Shown here in pieces: positions 1-50,520 of a DNA stretch of 64,000 nt. The stretch covers positions 116,972 to 180,971 of the forward strand of contig CAVPYV010000002.1 of assembly GCA_963710105.1 (NCBI GenBank), in the 5' to 3' direction. This DNA is from an uncultured Chloroflexia bacterium. GTDB taxonomy: Bacteria; Chloroflexota; Limnocylindria; Limnocylindrales; CSP1-4. The number at the start of each line of letters is the position of its first letter. Positions within the stretch are counted from its first letter, which is position 1. The notes beneath the pieces were generated by a model, which did not search any database, was not told the DNA's origin, and saw only the letters and a program-made list of their open reading frames with translations. A program made the position numbers and the translations under genes.

Positions 1-1182
1 AAGATCCGGGTGGCGATCGTCGGCGTCGGCAACTGCGCGAGCAGCCTCGTCCAGGGCCGCTACTACTACGAGAACGCCAAGGTCGAGGACAAGGTCCCGG
101 GCCTGATGCACGTCGAGCTCGGCGGCTACCACGTCCGCGACATCGAGTTCGTCGCCGCCTTCGACATCGACAAGAACAAGGTCGGCAAGGACCTGTCCGA
201 GGCGATCTACACGAAGCCGAACAACACCTACGTCTTCCACCAGGTCCCGAAGCTCGACGTCAAGGTCGAGCGCGGGATGGTCCACGACGGGCTCGGCAAA
301 TACCTCAGCCAGATCATCGAGAAGGCTCCGGGCGAGACCGCCGACGTGGTCGGGATCCTCAAGGAGCGCCAGGTCGACGTCGTCGTGTCCTACCTGCCGG
401 TCGGCAGCGAGGAGGCGACGAAGTGGTACGTCGAGCAGGCGCTGCGGGCCGGCGTCGGCTTCGTCAATGCGATCCCGGTGTTCATCGGCCGCGAGCCGTA
501 CTGGCAGCGCCGCTTCGCCGAGGAGGGCCTGCCGGTCATCGGCGACGACATCAAGAGCCAGGTCGGCGCGACGATCAGCCACCGCGTCCTGACCCGCCTC
601 TTCATGGATCGCGGCGTCCGGCTCGACCGGACGTACCAGCTGAACTTCGGCGGCAACACCGACTTCCTGAACATGCTCGAGCGGGAGCGGCTCGAGTCGA
701 AGAAGATCAGCAAGACGAACGCGGTCACCTCGATGCTCGACTACGAGATGGACCCCGACAACGTCCACGTCGGCCCGAGCGACCACGTCCCGTGGCTCGA
801 GGACCGCAAGTGGTGCTACATCCGGATGGAGGGCACGACGTTCGGTGACGTGCCGCTCAACGCGGAGCTGAAGCTCGAGGTCTGGGACAGCCCGAACAGC
901 GCCGGCGTCATCACCGACGCCGTCCGCTGCCTGAAGCTCGGCCTCGATCGCGGCCTCAAGGGCACGCTCGTCGCGCCGTCGAGCTACTTCATGAAGAGCC
1001 CGCCGATCCAGATCCACGACGACATCGCCTACAACCGGGTCGAGGCGTTCATCCGGGGCGAGGACAACGAGACGCTGGTCGGGACCGAGAACCTGACGAA
1101 GGCGCAGCTGAGGAAGCTGGCCTCGACCGCACCCGTCGCCGGCGCGGCCGGCAAGAAGGCGGCGGCCGCCGCCCCGAGGTGA
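1..1182 (+). CDS. ino1: myo-inositol-1-phosphate synthase (5'-truncated by window edge)
   Basis: Reads [19 protein letters not shown] from base 1; [31 protein letters not shown] and VWDSPNSAG motifs of the bacterial Ino1 family. Lys/Ala-rich C-terminal tail. Confidence 0.95.
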
Positions 1183-2309
1183 CCGTGGCCAAGGGCGCCG
1201 GCTCGGGCCTCGACGCACCCCACCGGCGCCGCGCCCAGGGCCCGCGGATCGTCGAGAAGACCGCCGTCACGGCCTACGCCGCGGCGGTCTGGCTGGTGGC
1301 CCACGTCCCGGCCGGCCTCGCCCGCTGGGTCATCGCGACCGGCAGCCAGGCGGGCTACCTGCTGTGGCCGACGAAGCGGCGCTGGTCGAACCAGAACTTC
1401 GGGAAGGTCGCCGGCCTTCCGCCGGACGACCGCCGCGTCCGCCGGCTGGCCCTGTCCGCGTACCGCGAGTACGCCCGCTACCTCGTCGAGGTCATGCGCC
1501 TCGAATCGCTCTCGCCGGACGAGGCGGTGGCGCGCGTGATCCAGCCGGACCTCGACCGGATCGAGGCGGAGTGGCGGTCGTCGCCGGGCGGCCTGATCTT
1601 CGCCCTCGGCCACGTCGGCAACAACGAGGCCGTGGCCGCCGGGGTCGCCGACCGGGGCTGGCCGATCAGCGTCGTGGCGGACGACTCGTCCTTCCCCGAG
1701 ATGTTCGAGCGGTTCCGCCGGCTGCGCGAGTCCTGGGGGATCCACGTCATCCCGTGGCGGAACCTGCGCGAGATCTACGCGGTCCTCAAGCGTGGCGAGA
1801 TGCTCGCGTTGCTCGTGGACTGGGGCTACCGCAGCGACGGCGTGCCGGTCCGCCTGTTCGGCTCGTGGACGACGCTGCCCGCCGGCCCGGCGTCGCTGGC
1901 GGCGAAGACCCGCTCGCGGATCCTGCCGGTCGCGATCCGGCGCGGGTCCGACGGCATGTTCCACGTGTCGTTCTCGCCGACGATCTCGGTCGCGTCCACC
2001 TCCGACGCCGACATCGCCCGGGCGACCCAGGAGCTCGCGGCGACGCTCGAGGCGACGATCGCCGCGGCGCCCGAGCAGTGGTACAGCTTCAAGCCGATCT
2101 GGCCGCCGACCGAGGAGGAGGCCGCCGGGCTCGAGGCGCGGGCGGCCCGGATGCTCGCCGGGGCCGCCGCCGAGCCGCCAGCGGTCGCCGCCGAGCCGGC
2201 GGAGCCCGTCGCCGGCGAGTCGCCCGACCTCCTCGTCCCGACGATCGCCGACGCCCCGGGGGCGGGCGACCCAGCCACGATCCCGGCGCCGGATCGCGCC
2301 CCGTCGTGA
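1179..2309 (+). CDS. lipid acyltransferase, LpxL/HtrB/PatA family (copy 1)
   Basis: GHVGNNE catalytic-His motif, ALLVDW, VRLFG and PEQW motifs; GTGA overlap with the ino1 stop. Confidence 0.85.
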
Positions 2310-37076: not shown

Positions 37077-37453
37077 TGGTGGAGATGGGGGAGAGTCGAA
37101 CTCCCCGTCCAGAACCCTTCGCCGGAGACCACTACGAGCGTGTCCGATGGTTTGTCGTCGACCGCCCGGACGAACATCGGCACCCTGCCGGACGGTCCAG
37201 TCACGTGCCCCTAGATCGGGCTTGATTCCGGACTACGCGACGCTCGTCCGGACCGCATCCCCGCTGAATGACGCTTCCACCGTCCGCGAGGAGGAGACGG
37301 CTTCCACGCTCACACTAGCTGCTTACGCAGCGAGGGCGAGAGTCGACTGGCGGTTGCCAGGTACTTCGTTTTGCTGCCTGATTAACGAGGCCTGAGCAGC
37401 ATCCTCGGCTCGCGTTCCCCGGTAGCCAGGCCCTGTCGAATCCACACATCCCC
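37077..37453 (-). ncRNA. ssrA: tmRNA; predicted tag (A)GNRQSTLALAA* at 37358-37323
   Basis: 5' GGGGATG pairs with 3' CATCTCC-ACCA including the G3-U wobble; GGATTCGAC D-loop-like and GTTCGACTC T-loop motifs; tag ORF ends in LALAA-TAA. Confidence 0.96.
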
Positions 37454-46339: not shown

Positions 46340-47131
46340 TCAGTCCGAGCGGTGATAGGCACCGCCCACCTCGTCGCGGATGATCCGGCCCTCCTCGAGG
46401 GCGACGACCCGCTTGCGGAGCGCGGTCACGACATCCGCGTCGTGGGTCGCCATCAGCACCGTCACCCCGAGCTCGTTGATCCGGAGGAGGAGCTGGATGA
46501 TCTCCCAGCTGATCAGCGGGTCGAGGTTGCCGGTCGGCTCGTCGGCGATGATCAGCTTCGGGTCGTGGACGAGGGCCCGGGCGATCGCGGTCCGCTGCTG
46601 CTCCCCGCCCGACAGCTGGCTCGGCAGCTGGGCGCGCTGCGCGGTCAGCCCGACGAGGGCGAGCACCCGGTCCACCGCCGGGCGGATCCGGCGGCGCGGC
46701 GAGCCGGTGACCTCGAGGGCGAAGGCGACGTTCTCCCAGACGCTCTTCTGGGGGAGGAGCTTGAAGTCCTGGAAGACGATCCCGATCTTTCGCCGGATCT
46801 TCGGGACCGCGCGGCGCGGCAGCCGGGCGAGATCGTGGCCGTCGAGGACGACCTGGCCCTGGGTGGCGATCTCGTCGCGGATCAGGAGCTTGATGATCGT
46901 CGACTTGCCGGCGCCGCTCGGGCCGACGAGGAACACGAAGTCGCCCTCGGGGATCACGAGGTCGACGTCGCGCAGCGCCGTCTTGCCGTTGGGATAGGTC
47001 TTCGTGACGTCGTGCAGGACGAGGACCGCCCGGTCCGCGGCGGCGTCGTCGCGGCCGCGGCGCAGGAGCCGCTCGCGGATCGAGCGCGCTGCGGCGGGCG
47101 GGGGCGAGGCGATGGTCAAGATCGGCTCCAC
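46340..47131 (-). CDS. ftsE: cell division ATP-binding protein FtsE (start approximate)
   Basis: 3' part of ORF 46340..48127; [31 protein letters not shown] and [10 protein letters not shown]. Confidence 0.93.
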
Positions 47132-47273: not shown

Positions 47274-48332
47274 TCAGAGGAGGCCCGGCGAGACCGGGAG
47301 GTAGCGGCCGAAGTCCGCGAACGGCTGGTCCCAGCAGAGGAGCACGGGAAAGCCGTCGAAGCGGAAGCCCGCCCGGAGGAGCGGGACGACGGCCTCGCCG
47401 GCGCTGCCCGGGACCCAGATGCCGAACGCGCCGCGCGGCCGGACGGCGCCGAGCAGGTGGCCGAGGACCGGGCCGAGGAGGGCGCCGTCGCGAACGGCCA
47501 CCGGCCCGACCCGGCCGGCCTCCGAGGTGTAGCCGTAGCCGACCGCCTCGCCGCTCCGGTCGCGGAACAGGAAGCCGAGCCGGCCCTCCCGATCGTGGAA
47601 CGGATGATCGGGCGACCGATCGAACCCGGCAGCGTCGCGGTCGAGCGAGGTGAGCTCGGCCGCCAGGGCCGACCGGCCGAGGCCGTCGGCGGCGTCGGGG
47701 ACCTCGTCGAAGCCGATCGCCTCGATGCCGTCCGGCAGGCGCTCGAACGCGCCATGACGTTCGGGCAGCCCGACGAGGCGGAGGAGGGGAACCCGCGGCA
47801 CGAGCCCGAGCGACCCGTACAGCCCGTTCGAGATCGGCTGGGCGCTGTCGGTGGCGGTCGCCCGCCACACGGCGTCGGGTGCCGCGGGATCCGCGGCCGC
47901 GCCCGGCAGCGCCATCGCGAGGAGCGTCCGGCCGAGGCCGCGGCCCTGGGCCGGCGGGCGGACGAAGAGCATCGACAGGAAGGCGAGGCGCTCGCGGCGG
48001 ACGACGACGACGAAGGCGTCGATCGTCCCGGGACCGCCGCCGCGAGGGCCCCGGCCTCCGTCGATCCCCGTCGCGGCCCGTTCGGCGACGAGGAACGTCG
48101 TCGGGTCGGTCGCGAGGAGGTGGGCATAGAGGCGCAGGATCGCCGCGAAGTCGTCGGGGATCTCGGGCTGGGCGAGCTTGCCGAGGTAGTCGTTCAGCGC
48201 ATCGCGCCAGATGGCGGCGCAGGTCGCGAGGTCGTCGGCCATCGCCGGTCGGACGACGTGCCCGGAGCCGGGGGAATTGCTCGCGGCGAGCGGCTGGGTC
48301 ACGACCCGGTCAGGAGCGGAGCCGGCGGTCAT
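47274..48332 (-). CDS. tandem-GNAT acetyltransferase
   Basis: 3' part of ORF 47274..49274; ATG 48332 overlaps the prfB stop; LFVRPPAQGRGLGRTLL, GLYGSLG and GRVGPVAV. Confidence 0.8.
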   Translation of the reverse strand: MTAGSAPDRVVTQPLAASNSPGSGHVVRPAMADDLATCAAIWRDALNDYLGKLAQPEIPDDFAAILRLYAHLLATDPTTFLVAERAATGIDGGRGPRGGGPGTIDAFVVVVRRERLAFLSMLFVRPPAQGRGLGRTLLAMALPGAAADPAAPDAVWRATATDSAQPISNGLYGSLGLVPRVPLLRLVGLPERHGAFERLPDGIEAIGFDEVPDAADGLGRSALAAELTSLDRDAAGFDRSPDHPFHDREGRLGFLFRDRSGEAVGYGYTSEAGRVGPVAVRDGALLGPVLGHLLGAVRPRGAFGIWVPGSAGEAVVPLLRAGFRFDGFPVLLCWDQPFADFGRYLPVSPGLL

Positions 48333-49466
48333 GCCTCGTCCGCGTCGTCGTCGGCGGCGCCGGCCGCGCGCCCGCCGCCGGTCGCCAGGCGCTCGAGCTC
48401 GGCCTGCATGAAGGCGTCGAGATCGCCGTCGAGGACGGCCTGGGTGTTGCCCGTCTCGTGGCCGGTCCGGAGGTCCTTGACCATCTGGTAGGGGTGGAGG
48501 ACGTAGCTCCGGATCTGGTTGCCCCAGCCGGCCTCGACGTGCTCGCCCTTCAGCTTGCGGACCTCGGCCTCCTGCTCCTCCAGGGCCCGCTCGAGGAGAC
48601 GCGCCTTCAGGACCCGGATCGCCATCTCCTTGTTCTGGGTCTGGCTCCGCTCGTTCTGGCTCTGGGCGACGATCCCGGTCTTGAGGTCGGTCAGGCGGAC
48701 GGCCGAATCGGTCTTGTTGACATGCTGGCCGCCGGCCCCCTGGGAGCGGAACGTGTCGACCCGGATCTCGTCCCAGTTCAGCTCGATCTCGATGTCGTCG
48801 TCGGCCTCGGGCAGGACCTCGACGAGGGCGAACGTCGTCTGGCGCCGCTTCTGCGAGTCGAACGGGCTGATCCGGACGAGGCGATGGACGCCGCGCTCGG
48901 CGCGCATCCAGCCGTAGGCGGCCCGGCCGTCGATCTCGACCGTCGCGCTCTTGATCCCGGCCTGCTCGCCTTCCTGCTGGTCGACGATCTCGGTCTTGTA
49001 GCGGTGGCGCTCGGCCCAGCGGAGGTACATCCGGAGGAGCATCTCGGCCCAGTCGGTCGCCTCCGTCCCGCCCGCCCCGGCGCTGATCGAGAGGATCGCC
49101 CCGCCCTGGTCGTACTCGCCCGAGAAGAGGAGGGCCGTCCGCTCCCGCCCGAAGTCCGATTCGAGGGCGCCGACCTCGCGGTCGAGCTCCGCGGTCAGCT
49201 CGGCGTCGCCGGATTCCTCGACGAGCTCGAGGGTCGTGAGGAGGTCGTCGGCGCGGCGCTCGAAGCCGCGCCACAGCTCGATGTCGGAGCGCAGGCCGTT
49301 GGCCTCGCGGAGGACCTTCTGGGCGGACCGCTGGTCGTCCCAGAAGCCCGGCTCGCTGGTCAGCGCCTCGAGCTGGGCGACGCGGCGTTCCTTCGTCGCG
49401 AGGTCAAAGATGCCCCGAGGTCGACCGAATCCGCTCGGCCAGGTCGCGAACGGTGGAGGCGTCCAC
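48329..49466 (-). CDS. prfB: peptide chain release factor 2 with programmed +1 frameshift (join 49466..49407, 49405..48329; 378 aa)
   Basis: GTG...GGG CAT CTT TGA C CTC slippery site at 49409-49403; after the shift: FWDDQ, GVHRLVRISPF (SPF) and GAGGQHVNKT. Confidence 0.96.
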
Positions 49467-49691
49467 TCAGTTGCGAGCCTGGAGGTCCTGGAGCAGGATC
49501 GGACGGAGCTCGATGAGGCGCAGGGCCGACTTGCTCCGGGCGACGACGGGGTTCACGCAGGGGCAGTAGCTGTTGTGGGGGCAGACGCCGCAATTGCCGT
49601 CGCAGTCGAGGGCGGCCGCGTAACTGCAGTTCCGGCAGTCGCGCTCACAGGCAATCAGATCGACGAACGACGCTTCCTCGGCCTGCTTCAA
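49467..49691 (-). CDS. 8-Cys microprotein (74 aa), probable metal or Fe-S binder
   Basis: 3' part of ORF 49467..49892; TTG start after GAGAGGGA; C-x3-C-x2-C-x7-C-x3-C-x2-C-x5-C-x-C. Confidence 0.65.
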   Translation of the reverse strand: MKQAEEASFVDLIACERDCRNCSYAAALDCDGNCGVCPHNSYCPCVNPVVARSKSALRLIELRPILLQDLQARN

Positions 49692-49789
49692 CTCGTCCCT
49701 CTCTCTGAACTGGGCAGGGCTTGGGGGGCGCGGAGCGCGTGCGACTCGAGGATCCTGGCCGATCGCCGGAGTCGCGGGGATTTGGCCGG

Positions 49790-49818
49790 AGTATAGGCCC
49801 TCGATCCCCTGCGGCCAA
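49790..49818 (-). promoter_or_regulatory. sigma70-type promoter for the Cys-protein/prfB operon
   Basis: TTGGCC (49818-49813), 17 nt, TATACT (49795-49790). Confidence 0.7.
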
Positions 49819-49923
49819 GAGGGAGAACCGGAAGTTTCGCGGATCGAGTCGATTGTCCCAGCCTCGCCGCGGCGATCGGACGTCGTCGCCACAAACCGCG
49901 GCCGGGACGCCCTCCGGGCGGCG

Positions 49924-50520
49924 TCAGAGCGTCTGGCCGGTGAGGAAGTAGAGCGTCAGGCCGCCGAGCTCATGGACCGTCGCCCAGAGGCGATCGGCCG
50001 GGGTGGAATCGCTCGGGCTCGTGGCCGTCGGCGAGCCGTAGGCGGCGATCCCCTCGTCGCGGGCGATCCGGAGGACCCGCAGCATGTGTGTCCGATCGGA
50101 GACGAACACCGCGCTCGTCAGGCCGTGGTCGCGGAGGACCGTCGCGGCCGAGCGGAGCGACTCGAGGGTGGTCCGGCCGCGATCCTCGGACAGGATGGCG
50201 GCGGCCGGCACGCCGCGCTGGATGGCGAAGGCACGGGCTGTCGCGGCCTCGGTCGTCACGTCGCCGTCCGCCTTGCCGCCGGTCACGAAGAGGTACGGGG
50301 CGACGCCGGCGTGATAGAGGTCGATCGCGTGGTCGAGCCGGGCCTTGAGGATCGCCGACGGCCGGCCGTTGTACTGGGCGGCGCCGAGGACGACGATCGC
50401 GTCGGCTGTGCGCCTGTCGTCGCGGTTGCCGATGTCCCAGATCCGGTAGCTCGTCCAGCCGGCCACGAGCAGTGCCCCGACGATCGCGGCGAGGACGAGG
50501 CGGCCGAGGTTGCGGAGCAT
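49924..50520 (-). CDS. YdcF/DUF218 (SanA/ElyC-like) envelope protein
   Basis: ADAIVVLGAA, LKARLDHA, VTGG, EDRGRTT-x-ES, VSD-x2-HM-x-R and HELGG. Confidence 0.9.
   Translation of the reverse strand: MLRNLGRLVLAAIVGALLVAGWTSYRIWDIGNRDDRRTADAIVVLGAAQYNGRPSAILKARLDHAIDLYHAGVAPYLFVTGGKADGDVTTEAATARAFAIQRGVPAAAILSEDRGRTTLESLRSAATVLRDHGLTSAVFVSDRTHMLRVLRIARDEGIAAYGSPTATSPSDSTPADRLWATVHELGGLTLYFLTGQTL

Follow-up and report, generated by a model that had tools for sequence, protein, structure and literature searches.

The prfB gene is a textbook case of autoregulatory frameshifting, and its product RF2, the sole factor that decodes UGA, is among the best-studied translation factors. Experiments in bacteria have demonstrated termination-reinitiation where a stop codon abuts or overlaps the following start codon, for example in TGATG and ATGA pairs (Huber et al., 2019; PMC6728339). 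The locus described here carries an intact E. coli-type prfB frameshift cassette (GGGG, 3 nt, CTT TGA C) and, as in TGATG and ATGA coupled pairs, the stop codon of an upstream gene with a strong SD abuts or overlaps the start of a downstream gene, prfB, that has none. It differs from the usual coupled pairs in that the downstream gene has a recoding control of its own and in that the upstream cistron encodes a lineage-specific microprotein with eight Cys residues, kept through at least 17 rearrangements; moreover, the coupling is here a putative one. It also differs from the E. coli-type arrangement, since the frameshift sits 57 nt past the junction and the microprotein is not involved in it.

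ArfA from E. coli, BrfA from B. subtilis and ArfT from Francisella, small alternative ribosome rescue factors that depend on a release factor, likewise measure about 55-75 residues and have a basic C-terminal part. In contrast to the microprotein, they have no Cys cluster, are not located beside prfB and are controlled through non-stop mRNA, and they share no sequence similarity with it. Their tie to RF2 is functional, whereas that of the microprotein is genetic only.

Limnocylindria is a class of uncultured bacteria that abound in soil and fresh water. The class as a whole encodes a strongly conserved eight-Cys protein ahead of prfB, and RF2 synthesis appears to start from that protein. A search of the literature on Cys-rich ORFs upstream of prfB or on release factors of Limnocylindria found nothing relevant, and no metal-cluster accessory subunit of a class-I release factor is known in bacteria.

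Organization of the locus and linkage of the microprotein gene to prfB

The following features were located in the window, that is, the whole stretch of 64,000 nucleotides that was analysed:

49924..50520, minus strand: DUF218 (SanA/ElyC-like) gene, the upstream neighbour (Pfam DUF218, 2.4e-28)
49790..49818, minus strand: promoter, with the -35 element TTGGCC at 49818-49813, a spacer of 17 nt and the -10 element TATACT at 49795-49790
49692..49789, minus strand: 5' leader of about 98 nt, with a lineage-variable hairpin and the SD GAGGGA (49701-49696) inside
49467..49691, minus strand: eight-Cys microprotein gene of 74 codons, with a TTG start at 49691-49689 and a TGA stop at 49469-49467
49539..49553, minus strand: stretch within the microprotein gene that comprises codons 47-50, without variation even at synonymous sites, and the following GCC, which does vary
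49464..49469, minus strand: TGA GTG junction, where the microprotein stop abuts the prfB start codon
49404..49466, minus strand: prfB frame-0 leader, GTG and 19 codons, VDASTVRDLAERIRSTSGHL, without an SD of its own and with a terminal in-frame TGA
49403..49416, minus strand: programmed +1 frameshift cassette of prfB, GGGG (49416-49413), CAT and CTT TGA C (49409-49403)
48329..49405, minus strand: main frame of prfB, with 358 codons past the shift, encoding RF2 (Pfam PCRF, 8.8e-55; RF-1, 3.2e-39)
47274..48332, minus strand: GNAT-family acetyltransferase-like gene (Pfam Acetyltransf_1, 1.3e-05, above the curated cut-off)
46340..47131, minus strand: ftsE, ABC ATPase (Pfam ABC_tran, 2.9e-35)

The ATG of the GNAT-like gene overlaps the prfB stop codon (ATGA), and the downstream order prfB-GNAT-ftsE agrees, on these Pfam matches, with that given in the original prediction. 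The DUF218 neighbour lies outside the conserved unit, as secA, lgt or nfi is found upstream in other lineages.

The TTGGCC-17-TATACT promoter, also part of the original prediction, is present on the minus strand and was the only promoter-like site found in positions 49300-50000, where shuffled sequences led us to expect 0.0. It is kept as TTGGCs-N17-TATACT in 78/81 orthologous loci, about 120 nt before the start of the ORF, and its flanks diverge. The SD of the microprotein gene is conserved in all 81 loci, and its predicted duplex with the anti-SD, taken from the 16S tail GGATCACCTCCTTTCT located in the genome, has a mean energy of -9.0 kcal/mol compared to -3.2 kcal/mol for random genomic 14-mers. 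Its conserved promoter, its leader of about 98 nt and its strong SD mark the microprotein gene as the leading cistron of a separate transcription unit. Hairpins were predicted in the leaders of most loci, with stems of differing sequence, yet these single-sequence folds had a mean z-score of -0.34, which is not significant; RNAalifold on a MAFFT alignment of the leader gave no consensus structure, and no Rfam family matched positions 49300-50000.

The microprotein was found, in a single copy each, in 42 of the 46 Limnocylindria genomes sampled, and there was no convincing match in about 355 other Chloroflexota. Homologues upstream of prfB, for which a search had been proposed, were indeed recovered: the gene lies directly 5' of prfB in 80/80 fetched loci, this adjacency is kept in three divergent groups whose upstream genes differ (lgt, secA and nfi), and true family members were never seen away from prfB. 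One genus (g12, with genomes of 1.1-1.4 Mb), nested inside the microprotein-bearing clade, has lost the gene and has kept a frameshifted prfB, so the protein is not indispensable for RF2. This genus provides a natural deletion control.

Junction with prfB and translation of the two genes

The distance between the microprotein stop and the prfB start is 0 to 2 nt, or there is a 1-nt overlap, in all 81 orthologous loci, and the junction takes the forms TAG GTG, TGAtg, TAGtg, TGA GTG, TAG ATG and several with TAA. The divergent groups vary more widely, with a 6-nt spacer at one extreme and, in groups L082 and L085, overlaps of 11 to about 29 nt with the two genes in other frames. Stop and start thus overlap or lie a few nucleotides apart on the same strand, as in coupled pairs, and prfB also fits such pairs in having no ribosome-binding site to itself: the predicted anti-SD duplex before prfB has a mean of -3.8 kcal/mol, near the -3.2 kcal/mol of random sites and far from the -9.0 kcal/mol of the microprotein SD. 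Since prfB has no SD and the microprotein gene always abuts or overlaps its start, prfB translation is likely coupled to that of the microprotein. In genus g12, which has no microprotein, an SD-like GAGGG (-7.7) stands before prfB in 3 of 4 genomes.

Under this arrangement, ribosomes would load at the microprotein SD, translate the ORF, terminate and then immediately start again on the frame-0 leader of prfB. By such re-initiation from the microprotein stop, RF2 synthesis is proposed to start from translation of the microprotein. If the link between the two genes is one of expression logic only, it would be a clean natural case of an essential gene that has given up its own ribosome-binding site. 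A short hairpin predicted over the prfB start was considered and set aside: about 79% of cells are paired compared to 24-48% in slid controls, with almost no covariation.

Frame 0 of prfB opens at GTG 49466 and ends after 20 codons at CTT TGA C (49409-49403). The cassette has the composition of a +1 frameshift site, GGGG CAT CTT TGA C, with the PCRF and RF-1 domains encoded in the +1 frame. CTTTGAC was present in every related locus examined, and the distance from the prfB start to the shift site was 57 nt in 79/79 loci. This classic RF2-sensing frameshift, 57 nt downstream, would be the sole RF2-specific control of the unit.

The Cys-rich product and its possible relation to RF2

The eight Cys are packed within 31 residues in the pattern C15-x3-C19-x2-C22 ... 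C30-x3-C34-x2-C37-x5-C43-x-C45, and form a compact core between an acidic N-terminal part and a basic tail. This tail, which is probably helical, is basic in every group though its sequence diverges. The C-x3-C-x2-C spacing of radical-SAM proteins occurs twice, and the second triad is extended by C-P-x4-C. The resulting C-x3-C-x2-C-P-x4-C presumably fits the C-x2-C-x5-C part of the [4Fe-4S] sites in EndoIII/MutY and WhiB; nevertheless, the likeness to EndoIII/MutY (C-x6-C-x2-C-x5-C) and WhiB (C-x2-C-x5-C) is in spacing only, and the microprotein is far shorter than radical-SAM and EndoIII domains. Its eight Cys are enough for two Cys4 sites, as in 2x[4Fe-4S] ferredoxins, with Zn equally possible. 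On this pattern, and on the invariance of the eight Cys and of E16, Y24, D31, G32 and P44, the microprotein probably binds metal, and the product would be a small metal-binding protein with two Cys4 sites holding [4Fe-4S] or Zn.

Profile searches assigned neither the window protein nor three divergent relatives to a Pfam family at E values up to 10, at which the profiles for Fer4, Radical_SAM, WhiB, EndoIII FCL and zf-CDGSH gave no match either. NCBIfam (E up to 1 for the microprotein) and PHROG scans of it and its divergent relatives were equally negative, and PDB searches with a single sequence and with a profile returned chance-level matches only. AlphaFold2 models of the full protein (42-row alignment) and of the Cys core (47 rows) reached a pLDDT of about 49 and so provide no fold that would support a metal site. 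At the level of sequence, the proposal of a new Cys-rich, probably metal-binding microprotein co-expressed with prfB-GNAT-ftsE is supported by a real and conserved gene with a promoter to itself, by the lack of any known family and by the downstream gene order.

The best explanation of the locus, which we favour with moderate confidence, combines termination-reinitiation onto prfB with a metal-binding product that, made from the same mRNA as RF2, would act jointly with RF2 or the terminating ribosome, or in parallel to them. In it, the coupling, the metal binding and any functional tie to RF2 are inferred. Should the microprotein indeed work together with RF2, it would represent a novel type of accessory factor for termination and a possible tie of that process to metal or redox state. 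A stronger proposal appears unlikely at present. It holds that RF2 in Limnocylindria, and in a few related deep lineages, is accompanied by a dedicated Fe-S or Zn partner made by co-translation, which would associate with RF2 or with the ribosome during termination and tune stop-codon recognition or RF2-dependent rescue to oxygen, redox state or the supply of metal.

Alternatively, the product could be an ordinary small ferredoxin-like or zinc protein whose job, for instance as an electron carrier, a redox buffer or a store of metal, is unrelated to termination and which only has a strong constitutive promoter and a ribosome loading site in common with prfB. Two Cys triads with two further Cys do resemble the logic of di-cluster ferredoxins, and the gene was lost in one genus while prfB stayed. 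In addition, the Cys module has a weak relative (E 8e-6) that occurs elsewhere as a fusion with a ParB_N-like protein, which indicates that nothing intrinsic ties the module to RF2. However, the linkage to prfB survives at least 17 junction changes as well as swaps of the upstream neighbour, a persistence not predicted by chance operon membership, the gene is single-copy and never away from prfB among true members, and there is no Fer4-type Pfam match. We regard this alternative as doubtful, albeit the most probable of those considered.

A somewhat less probable alternative is that the microprotein is an RF2-dependent ribosome cofactor, e.g., an ArfA/BrfA-like rescue factor or a helper of termination or recycling. 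In that picture, the basic tail would bind the ribosome and the Cys core would contact RF2. The strict, ancient linkage to prfB across lineages with a differing other neighbour would suit such a factor, as would the small size, the basic C-terminal tail found in every group and the lack of an ArfB-type third RF-1-domain protein in the genome of the window and in genus g12. Against it, tmRNA (detected by the Rfam model, while aragorn gave none) and smpB are present, so that there is no rescue gap demanding such a factor, and genus g12 lost the microprotein without gaining ArfB. ArfA and BrfA are not known to carry a Cys cluster or to be linked to prfB. Pfam holds an ArfA family, and neither Pfam (E up to 10) nor NCBIfam (E up to 1) gave a profile match that would place the microprotein among ArfA/BrfA-type sequences. 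Finally, in a small sample, no convincing column of RF2 residues or insertions was found to track the presence of the microprotein, i.e., there was no co-varying RF2 feature. We continue to favour the combined explanation given above over both alternatives.

Stop codon identity and selection on the microprotein gene

In the window the microprotein ends with AAC TGA, followed at once and in frame by GTG (49466-49464), as the original prediction had reported for this junction. As UGA is read by RF2 alone, it had been proposed from this junction that the microprotein UGA forms a second RF2-sensing layer, in which, with RF2 scarce, termination at this UGA would be slow or would be read through, and prfB initiation would be altered or a microprotein-RF2 fusion made. 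The comparison of orthologues, by which the prediction itself was to be judged, speaks against this. The stop codon is TAG in 54, TGA in 25 and TAA in 2 of the 81 loci, and the TGA-GTG form occurs solely in the subclade of the window (9 rows). In about one third of the loci the stop and the prfB start share one base, which places that start out of frame with the microprotein, and more distant relatives overlap by the 11 to about 29 nt mentioned above, so neither the UGA nor the in-frame relation needed for a fusion is conserved. Mapped on the RF2 tree, the stop codon switched identity at least 9 times and the frame relation shifted at least 10 times, in a remodelling of the junction that amounts to at least 17 changes in all. 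Furthermore, a UGA at this position would presumably tie prfB initiation to RF2 the wrong way for homeostasis. The conserved feature is the tight junction, not the UGA. As a conserved mechanism, the UGA sensor is already refuted by these sequence comparisons and has become very improbable; since its stop is not a conserved UGA, the microprotein is not the proposed RF2 sensor and does not duplicate the frameshift mechanism. This negative result matters: the comparison of orthologues disposes of an attractive idea, that of a UGA sensor placed on top of the frameshift.

TAG accounts for 67% of stops at the junction between the microprotein and prfB, compared to 18-25% genome-wide. Selection at prfB for a stop read by RF1 was considered and dropped, because abutting 0-nt junctions genome-wide are likewise rich in TAG (7/11).

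The 74-aa eight-Cys ORF of the original prediction proved to be a real gene by several measures. GC3 is 0.80-0.97 in the microprotein frame from about 49709 to 49470 and the signal is absent upstream; a GTG, TTG or ATG start codon is present in 81/81 loci, each with the SD described above; and synonymous codon differences per pair (21.6) clearly exceed non-synonymous ones (4.9). Homologous protein clusters number 435 to 733, with hundreds of orthologues that are 88-99% identical. The residues C15, E16, C19, C22, Y24, L28, C30, D31, G32, C34, C37, C43, P44 and C45 are invariant, and all eight Cys remain so even across groups whose overall identity is just 38-50%. From this pattern we conclude that the ORF is a genuine, undescribed gene under strong selection. 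That it would be a mere leader cistron for regulation, or else a shadow frame in G+C-rich DNA, with a functionless peptide, as the reliance of prfB on upstream loading and the frequency of long spurious frames in high-G+C genomes might suggest, is hardly credible, as it is contradicted by amino acids conserved at 88-99% while synonymous sites vary freely and by Cys that stay invariant among such divergent groups.

Two further candidate roles were rejected. A RiPP precursor would call for modifying enzymes, and none are encoded nearby; a leader peptide for Cys attenuation is at odds with the conserved protein sequence and with Cys that are not consecutive.

Within the window's family, mean identity was 94.7% for the microprotein and 76% for RF2, whereas between families f1 and f3 it was about 50% for the microprotein and 59-63% for RF2. 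Judged by these identities, class-wide conservation of the microprotein is not above that of RF2.

Codons 47-50 (AAC CCC GTC GTC, 49553-49542) are identical in 81/81 loci, synonymous sites included. Their best complement is the region 5' of the shift site in 68/79 loci (-18.7 kcal/mol); a pairing between the two was rejected, because other parts of this G+C-rich RNA reach comparable energies and neither segment varies. The GCC that follows codon 50 (49541-49539) varies among the loci, as do the other Pro, Val and Asn codons of the ORF.

Locus organization and coding status of the eight-cysteine ORF

The 64-kb window carries, directly 5' of prfB (encoding RF2) and on the minus strand, a short ORF for an eight-cysteine microprotein, with the following features:

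49818-49813, minus strand: -35 element TTGGCC, with a 17-nt spacer to the -10 element
49795-49790, minus strand: -10 element TATACT
49701-49696, minus strand: Shine-Dalgarno (SD) sequence GAGGGA, after a 5' leader of about 98 nt
49691 (TTG start) to 49469-49467 (TGA stop), minus strand: microprotein ORF of 74 codons, product MKQAEEASFVDLIACERDCRNCSYAAALDCDGNCGVCPHNSYCPCVNPVVARSKSALRLIELRPILLQDLQARN
49466-49464, minus strand: GTG start of prfB, right after the microprotein TGA, opening the frame-0 leader VDASTVRDLAERIRSTSGHL
49409-49403, minus strand: prfB shift site CTT TGA C, preceded by an SD-like GGGG and closing the frame-0 leader

RF2 is encoded in the +1 frame after the shift site (PCRF, 8.8e-55; RF-1, 3.2e-39). 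Downstream of prfB lie a GNAT-like gene, whose ATG overlaps the prfB stop, and ftsE, while a DUF218 gene and secA are located upstream of the microprotein ORF. Each item of the original prediction's description of promoter, ORF, junction, shift site and downstream genes was found as stated.

The microprotein frame, from about 49709 to 49470, showed a G+C content of 0.80-0.97 at third and 0.40-0.57 at second codon positions, a signal that disappeared farther upstream and thus favours the 74-codon start over a 141-codon GTG start. We compared the window with loci fetched from 80 species-level genomes, all of them metagenome-assembled; their labels read Limnocylindria, Limnocylindrales or Chloroflexota, apart from a few that are clearly wrong. 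At the position equivalent to 49691 the codon was GTG in 62 loci, TTG in 18 and ATG in one, and in 81 of 81 it was preceded by GAGGGA or GGAGGGAG, the sequence farther upstream being divergent. Orthologue pairs differed at 23.6 third versus 2.4 second positions, and by 21.6 synonymous versus 4.9 non-synonymous codons. Within the window's family, mean identity was 94.7% for the microprotein and 76% for RF2 of the same loci; this contrast vanished class-wide, where f3-type microproteins (f3 being another family of the class) were about 50% identical to that of the window and RF2 59-63%. A profile search gave 733 clusters, a search of 5.8 billion proteins 435 clusters of 88-99% identity, none of them named, and a complete HMMER pass over 1.84 billion representatives just 61 proteins, almost all of which could be recognised as belonging to the family or as pieces of its members. 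On this sequence evidence, the ORF is a genuine gene. The public gene calls P0124, P0126, P0170, P0172 and P0255 are chimeras produced by the gene caller, which start in the microprotein and continue into the leader or RF2 frames of prfB; in P0170, a sense codon replaces the stop, joining microprotein and prfB frame-0 leader in a single reading frame.

Codons 47-50 (AAC CCC GTC GTC; 49553-49542, minus strand) were unchanged in 81 of 81 orthologues, synonymous sites included, whereas Pro, Val and Asn codons elsewhere in the ORF do vary, which suggests a constraint at the RNA or DNA level. Within the mRNA, the segment most complementary to them is GGTCGACCTCGGGG (49426-49413), immediately 5' of the prfB shift site; it was the top partner in 68 of 79 loci, at -18.7 kcal/mol. 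As comparable energies were reached elsewhere, this pairing does not account for the invariance.

Distribution and linkage to prfB

Among 401 evenly sampled Chloroflexota genomes, exactly one copy of the gene was present in 42 of the 46 genomes of the window's class (Limnocylindria), and the approximately 355 genomes outside it yielded only one weak and two spurious matches. The four class genomes lacking the gene (G269, G309, G133 and G357; loci L104 and L106-L108) all belong to one genus of the same order, g12, with genomes of 1.1-1.4 Mb. There, 56 nt lie between secA and the downstream prfB, which is frameshifted and has the leader GTG AGC GTC GAC... Since g12 was nested inside the microprotein-bearing clade in the RF2 tree (SH-aLRT 100), absence of the gene in this genus represents a secondary loss. 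The g12 locus looks as if the gene had been cleanly excised, leaving prfB with an SD-like sequence.

A search of representative proteins recovered three divergent groups, in all of which the microprotein gene lies directly 5' of prfB despite a different gene farther upstream:

MKEW type (MKEWIVCEDNCLKCSYGATLDCDGDCPRCPRNTYCPC...): lgt farther upstream; junction of TGA, 6-nt spacer and in-frame GTG
f3 type (...YEDLIVCERDCMRCSYA...): secA farther upstream; prfB TTG 11 nt inside the microprotein gene
Single contig of 52% G+C: nfi farther upstream; prfB ATG about 29 nt inside the microprotein gene

The eight cysteines together with E16, Y24, L28, D31, G32 and P44 were invariant in all groups.

Across the 81 loci the microprotein stop was TAG in 54, TGA in 25 and TAA in two. 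Usable RF2 sequence was available for 75 rows, in which the junction was TAG GTG in 30, TGAtg (1-nt overlap) in 14, TAGtg (1-nt overlap) in 12, TGA GTG, the window's form, in nine, and TAG ATG in seven, with three single odd junctions. On the RF2 tree, stop identity changed at least nine times, junction class at least 17 and frame relation at least 10, and the TGA GTG form was confined to the window's own subclade. Proximity at the junction is thus kept in the sequences compared, and neither UGA nor frame is conserved. The proposal that the UGA stop forms a second RF2-sensing layer, with read-through giving a fusion protein, is consequently not supported: the original prediction named UAA or UAG stops or out-of-frame starts in orthologues as grounds for refuting it, and both were seen among the orthologues compared.

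TAG made up 67% of stops at the microprotein-prfB junction against 18-25% genome-wide. Selection for an RF1-read TAG stop at this junction was set aside, because in the window's genome (G000), where TGA accounts for 73-79% of all stops, TAG was also the commonest stop wherever a stop directly abuts a start (7 of 11 callable junctions); the excess therefore looks general for 0-nt junctions in this genome, and nothing specific to prfB is claimed. In the same genome, 95% of 1-nt overlaps were TGATG and all 4-nt overlaps were xTGA.

Transcription and predicted translational coupling

The promoter TTGGCs-N17-TATACT was kept in 78 of 81 loci, some 120 nt ahead of the microprotein start, and in the window it was the only promoter-like site within 49300-50000, where shuffled sequences expect none. 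This conservation indicates that the microprotein gene and prfB form their own transcription unit, whatever gene lies upstream. In the leader (49740-49785, minus strand), most orthologues have the potential for a two-tier hairpin 15-45 nt downstream of the -10 box, with stems that vary by lineage (for example GGTCC/GGACC, GGGAC/GTCCC, ACCTGCCG/CGGCAGGT); z-scores of these hairpins were not significant and RNAalifold gave no consensus on a MAFFT alignment.

Pairing of the microprotein SD with the 16S tail of the window's genome averaged -9.0 kcal/mol, stronger than the 5th percentile (-7.5) obtained with random 14-mers, whereas the 14 nt upstream of the prfB start codon gave -3.8, close to the mean for random sequence (-3.2). 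Given a prfB without an SD and with its start at or overlapping the upstream stop, initiation by ribosomes coming straight from the microprotein ORF is the simplest explanation. Most likely, ribosomes would load at the microprotein SD, translate the ORF, terminate and re-initiate at the prfB start. Termination-reinitiation at this type of junction has been demonstrated in E. coli and Haloferax (PMC6728339). Genus g12 offers a natural control for such predicted coupling: in three of its four genomes, which are mutually close relatives, GGGTGAGGG (-7.7 kcal/mol) now stands in front of prfB, and the remaining genome lacks an SD. Most loci can form a short hairpin including the prfB start codon (paired cells: about 79%, versus 24-48% in slid controls), which is only a hint, as covariation is almost nil and the hairpin derives from the same sequences. 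In every locus, the RF2-sensing +1 frameshift was intact 57 nt downstream of the junction.

Nature and possible role of the microprotein

At permissive thresholds, no relatives were found in Pfam, NCBIfam, PHROG or PDB. AlphaFold2 returned a pLDDT of 49 for the full protein and the core alike, with a low-confidence C-terminal helix (residues 48-72) as the sole prediction; the C-terminal tail diverges in sequence but is basic in every group (net charge about +3 to +4). The cysteines are arranged as C-x3-C-x2-C, seven residues, and C-x3-C-x2-C-P-x4-C-P-C. The spacing C-x2-C-x5-C is that of [4Fe-4S] sites in EndoIII/MutY and WhiB-like proteins, and two triads with two distal cysteines are reminiscent of di-cluster ferredoxins; both likenesses are in spacing only, profiles placed the microprotein in none of these families, and two Zn(Cys)4 sites would match equally well. 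As far as sequence allows, the predicted new Cys-rich microprotein co-expressed with prfB is supported, being a conserved gene with its own promoter and of no known family. Literature searches found no published description; the gene family is undescribed and its expression logic of a known kind.

Functional evidence is of one kind, a strict and ancient linkage to prfB maintained through junction rearrangements and changes of other neighbours, suggesting a function tied to RF2 or to the terminating ribosome. An RF2-dependent role like that of ArfA or BrfA is conceivable, but no result supported it specifically, and g12 lost the microprotein without gaining ArfB. No ArfB-type third RF-1-domain gene was found in the window's genome (82% complete). 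A tmRNA gene, missed by aragorn, lies at 37077-37453 (minus strand; Rfam RF00023, 121.5 bits), in the same region as secA-prfB-ftsE. In a small set of RF2 sequences, covering genomes that carry the microprotein gene and genomes that lack it, no residue or insertion tracked the presence of the gene. We therefore read the gene as a probable leader cistron that would load ribosomes for prfB, and its product as a putative small protein that binds metal and is co-produced with RF2; that it is a true partner of RF2 is a minority possibility.

A weak relative of the cysteine module (E = 8e-6) formed the N-terminus of a ParB_N-like protein in another Chloroflexota genome (locus L098, G015:C62:1-2993, a 3-kb contig; about 1057-1263, minus strand). 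Its eight cysteines follow C-x6-C-x2-C ... C-x3-C-x2-C-P-x4-C-x-C, so that the module may also occur as a domain of nucleic-acid-binding proteins.
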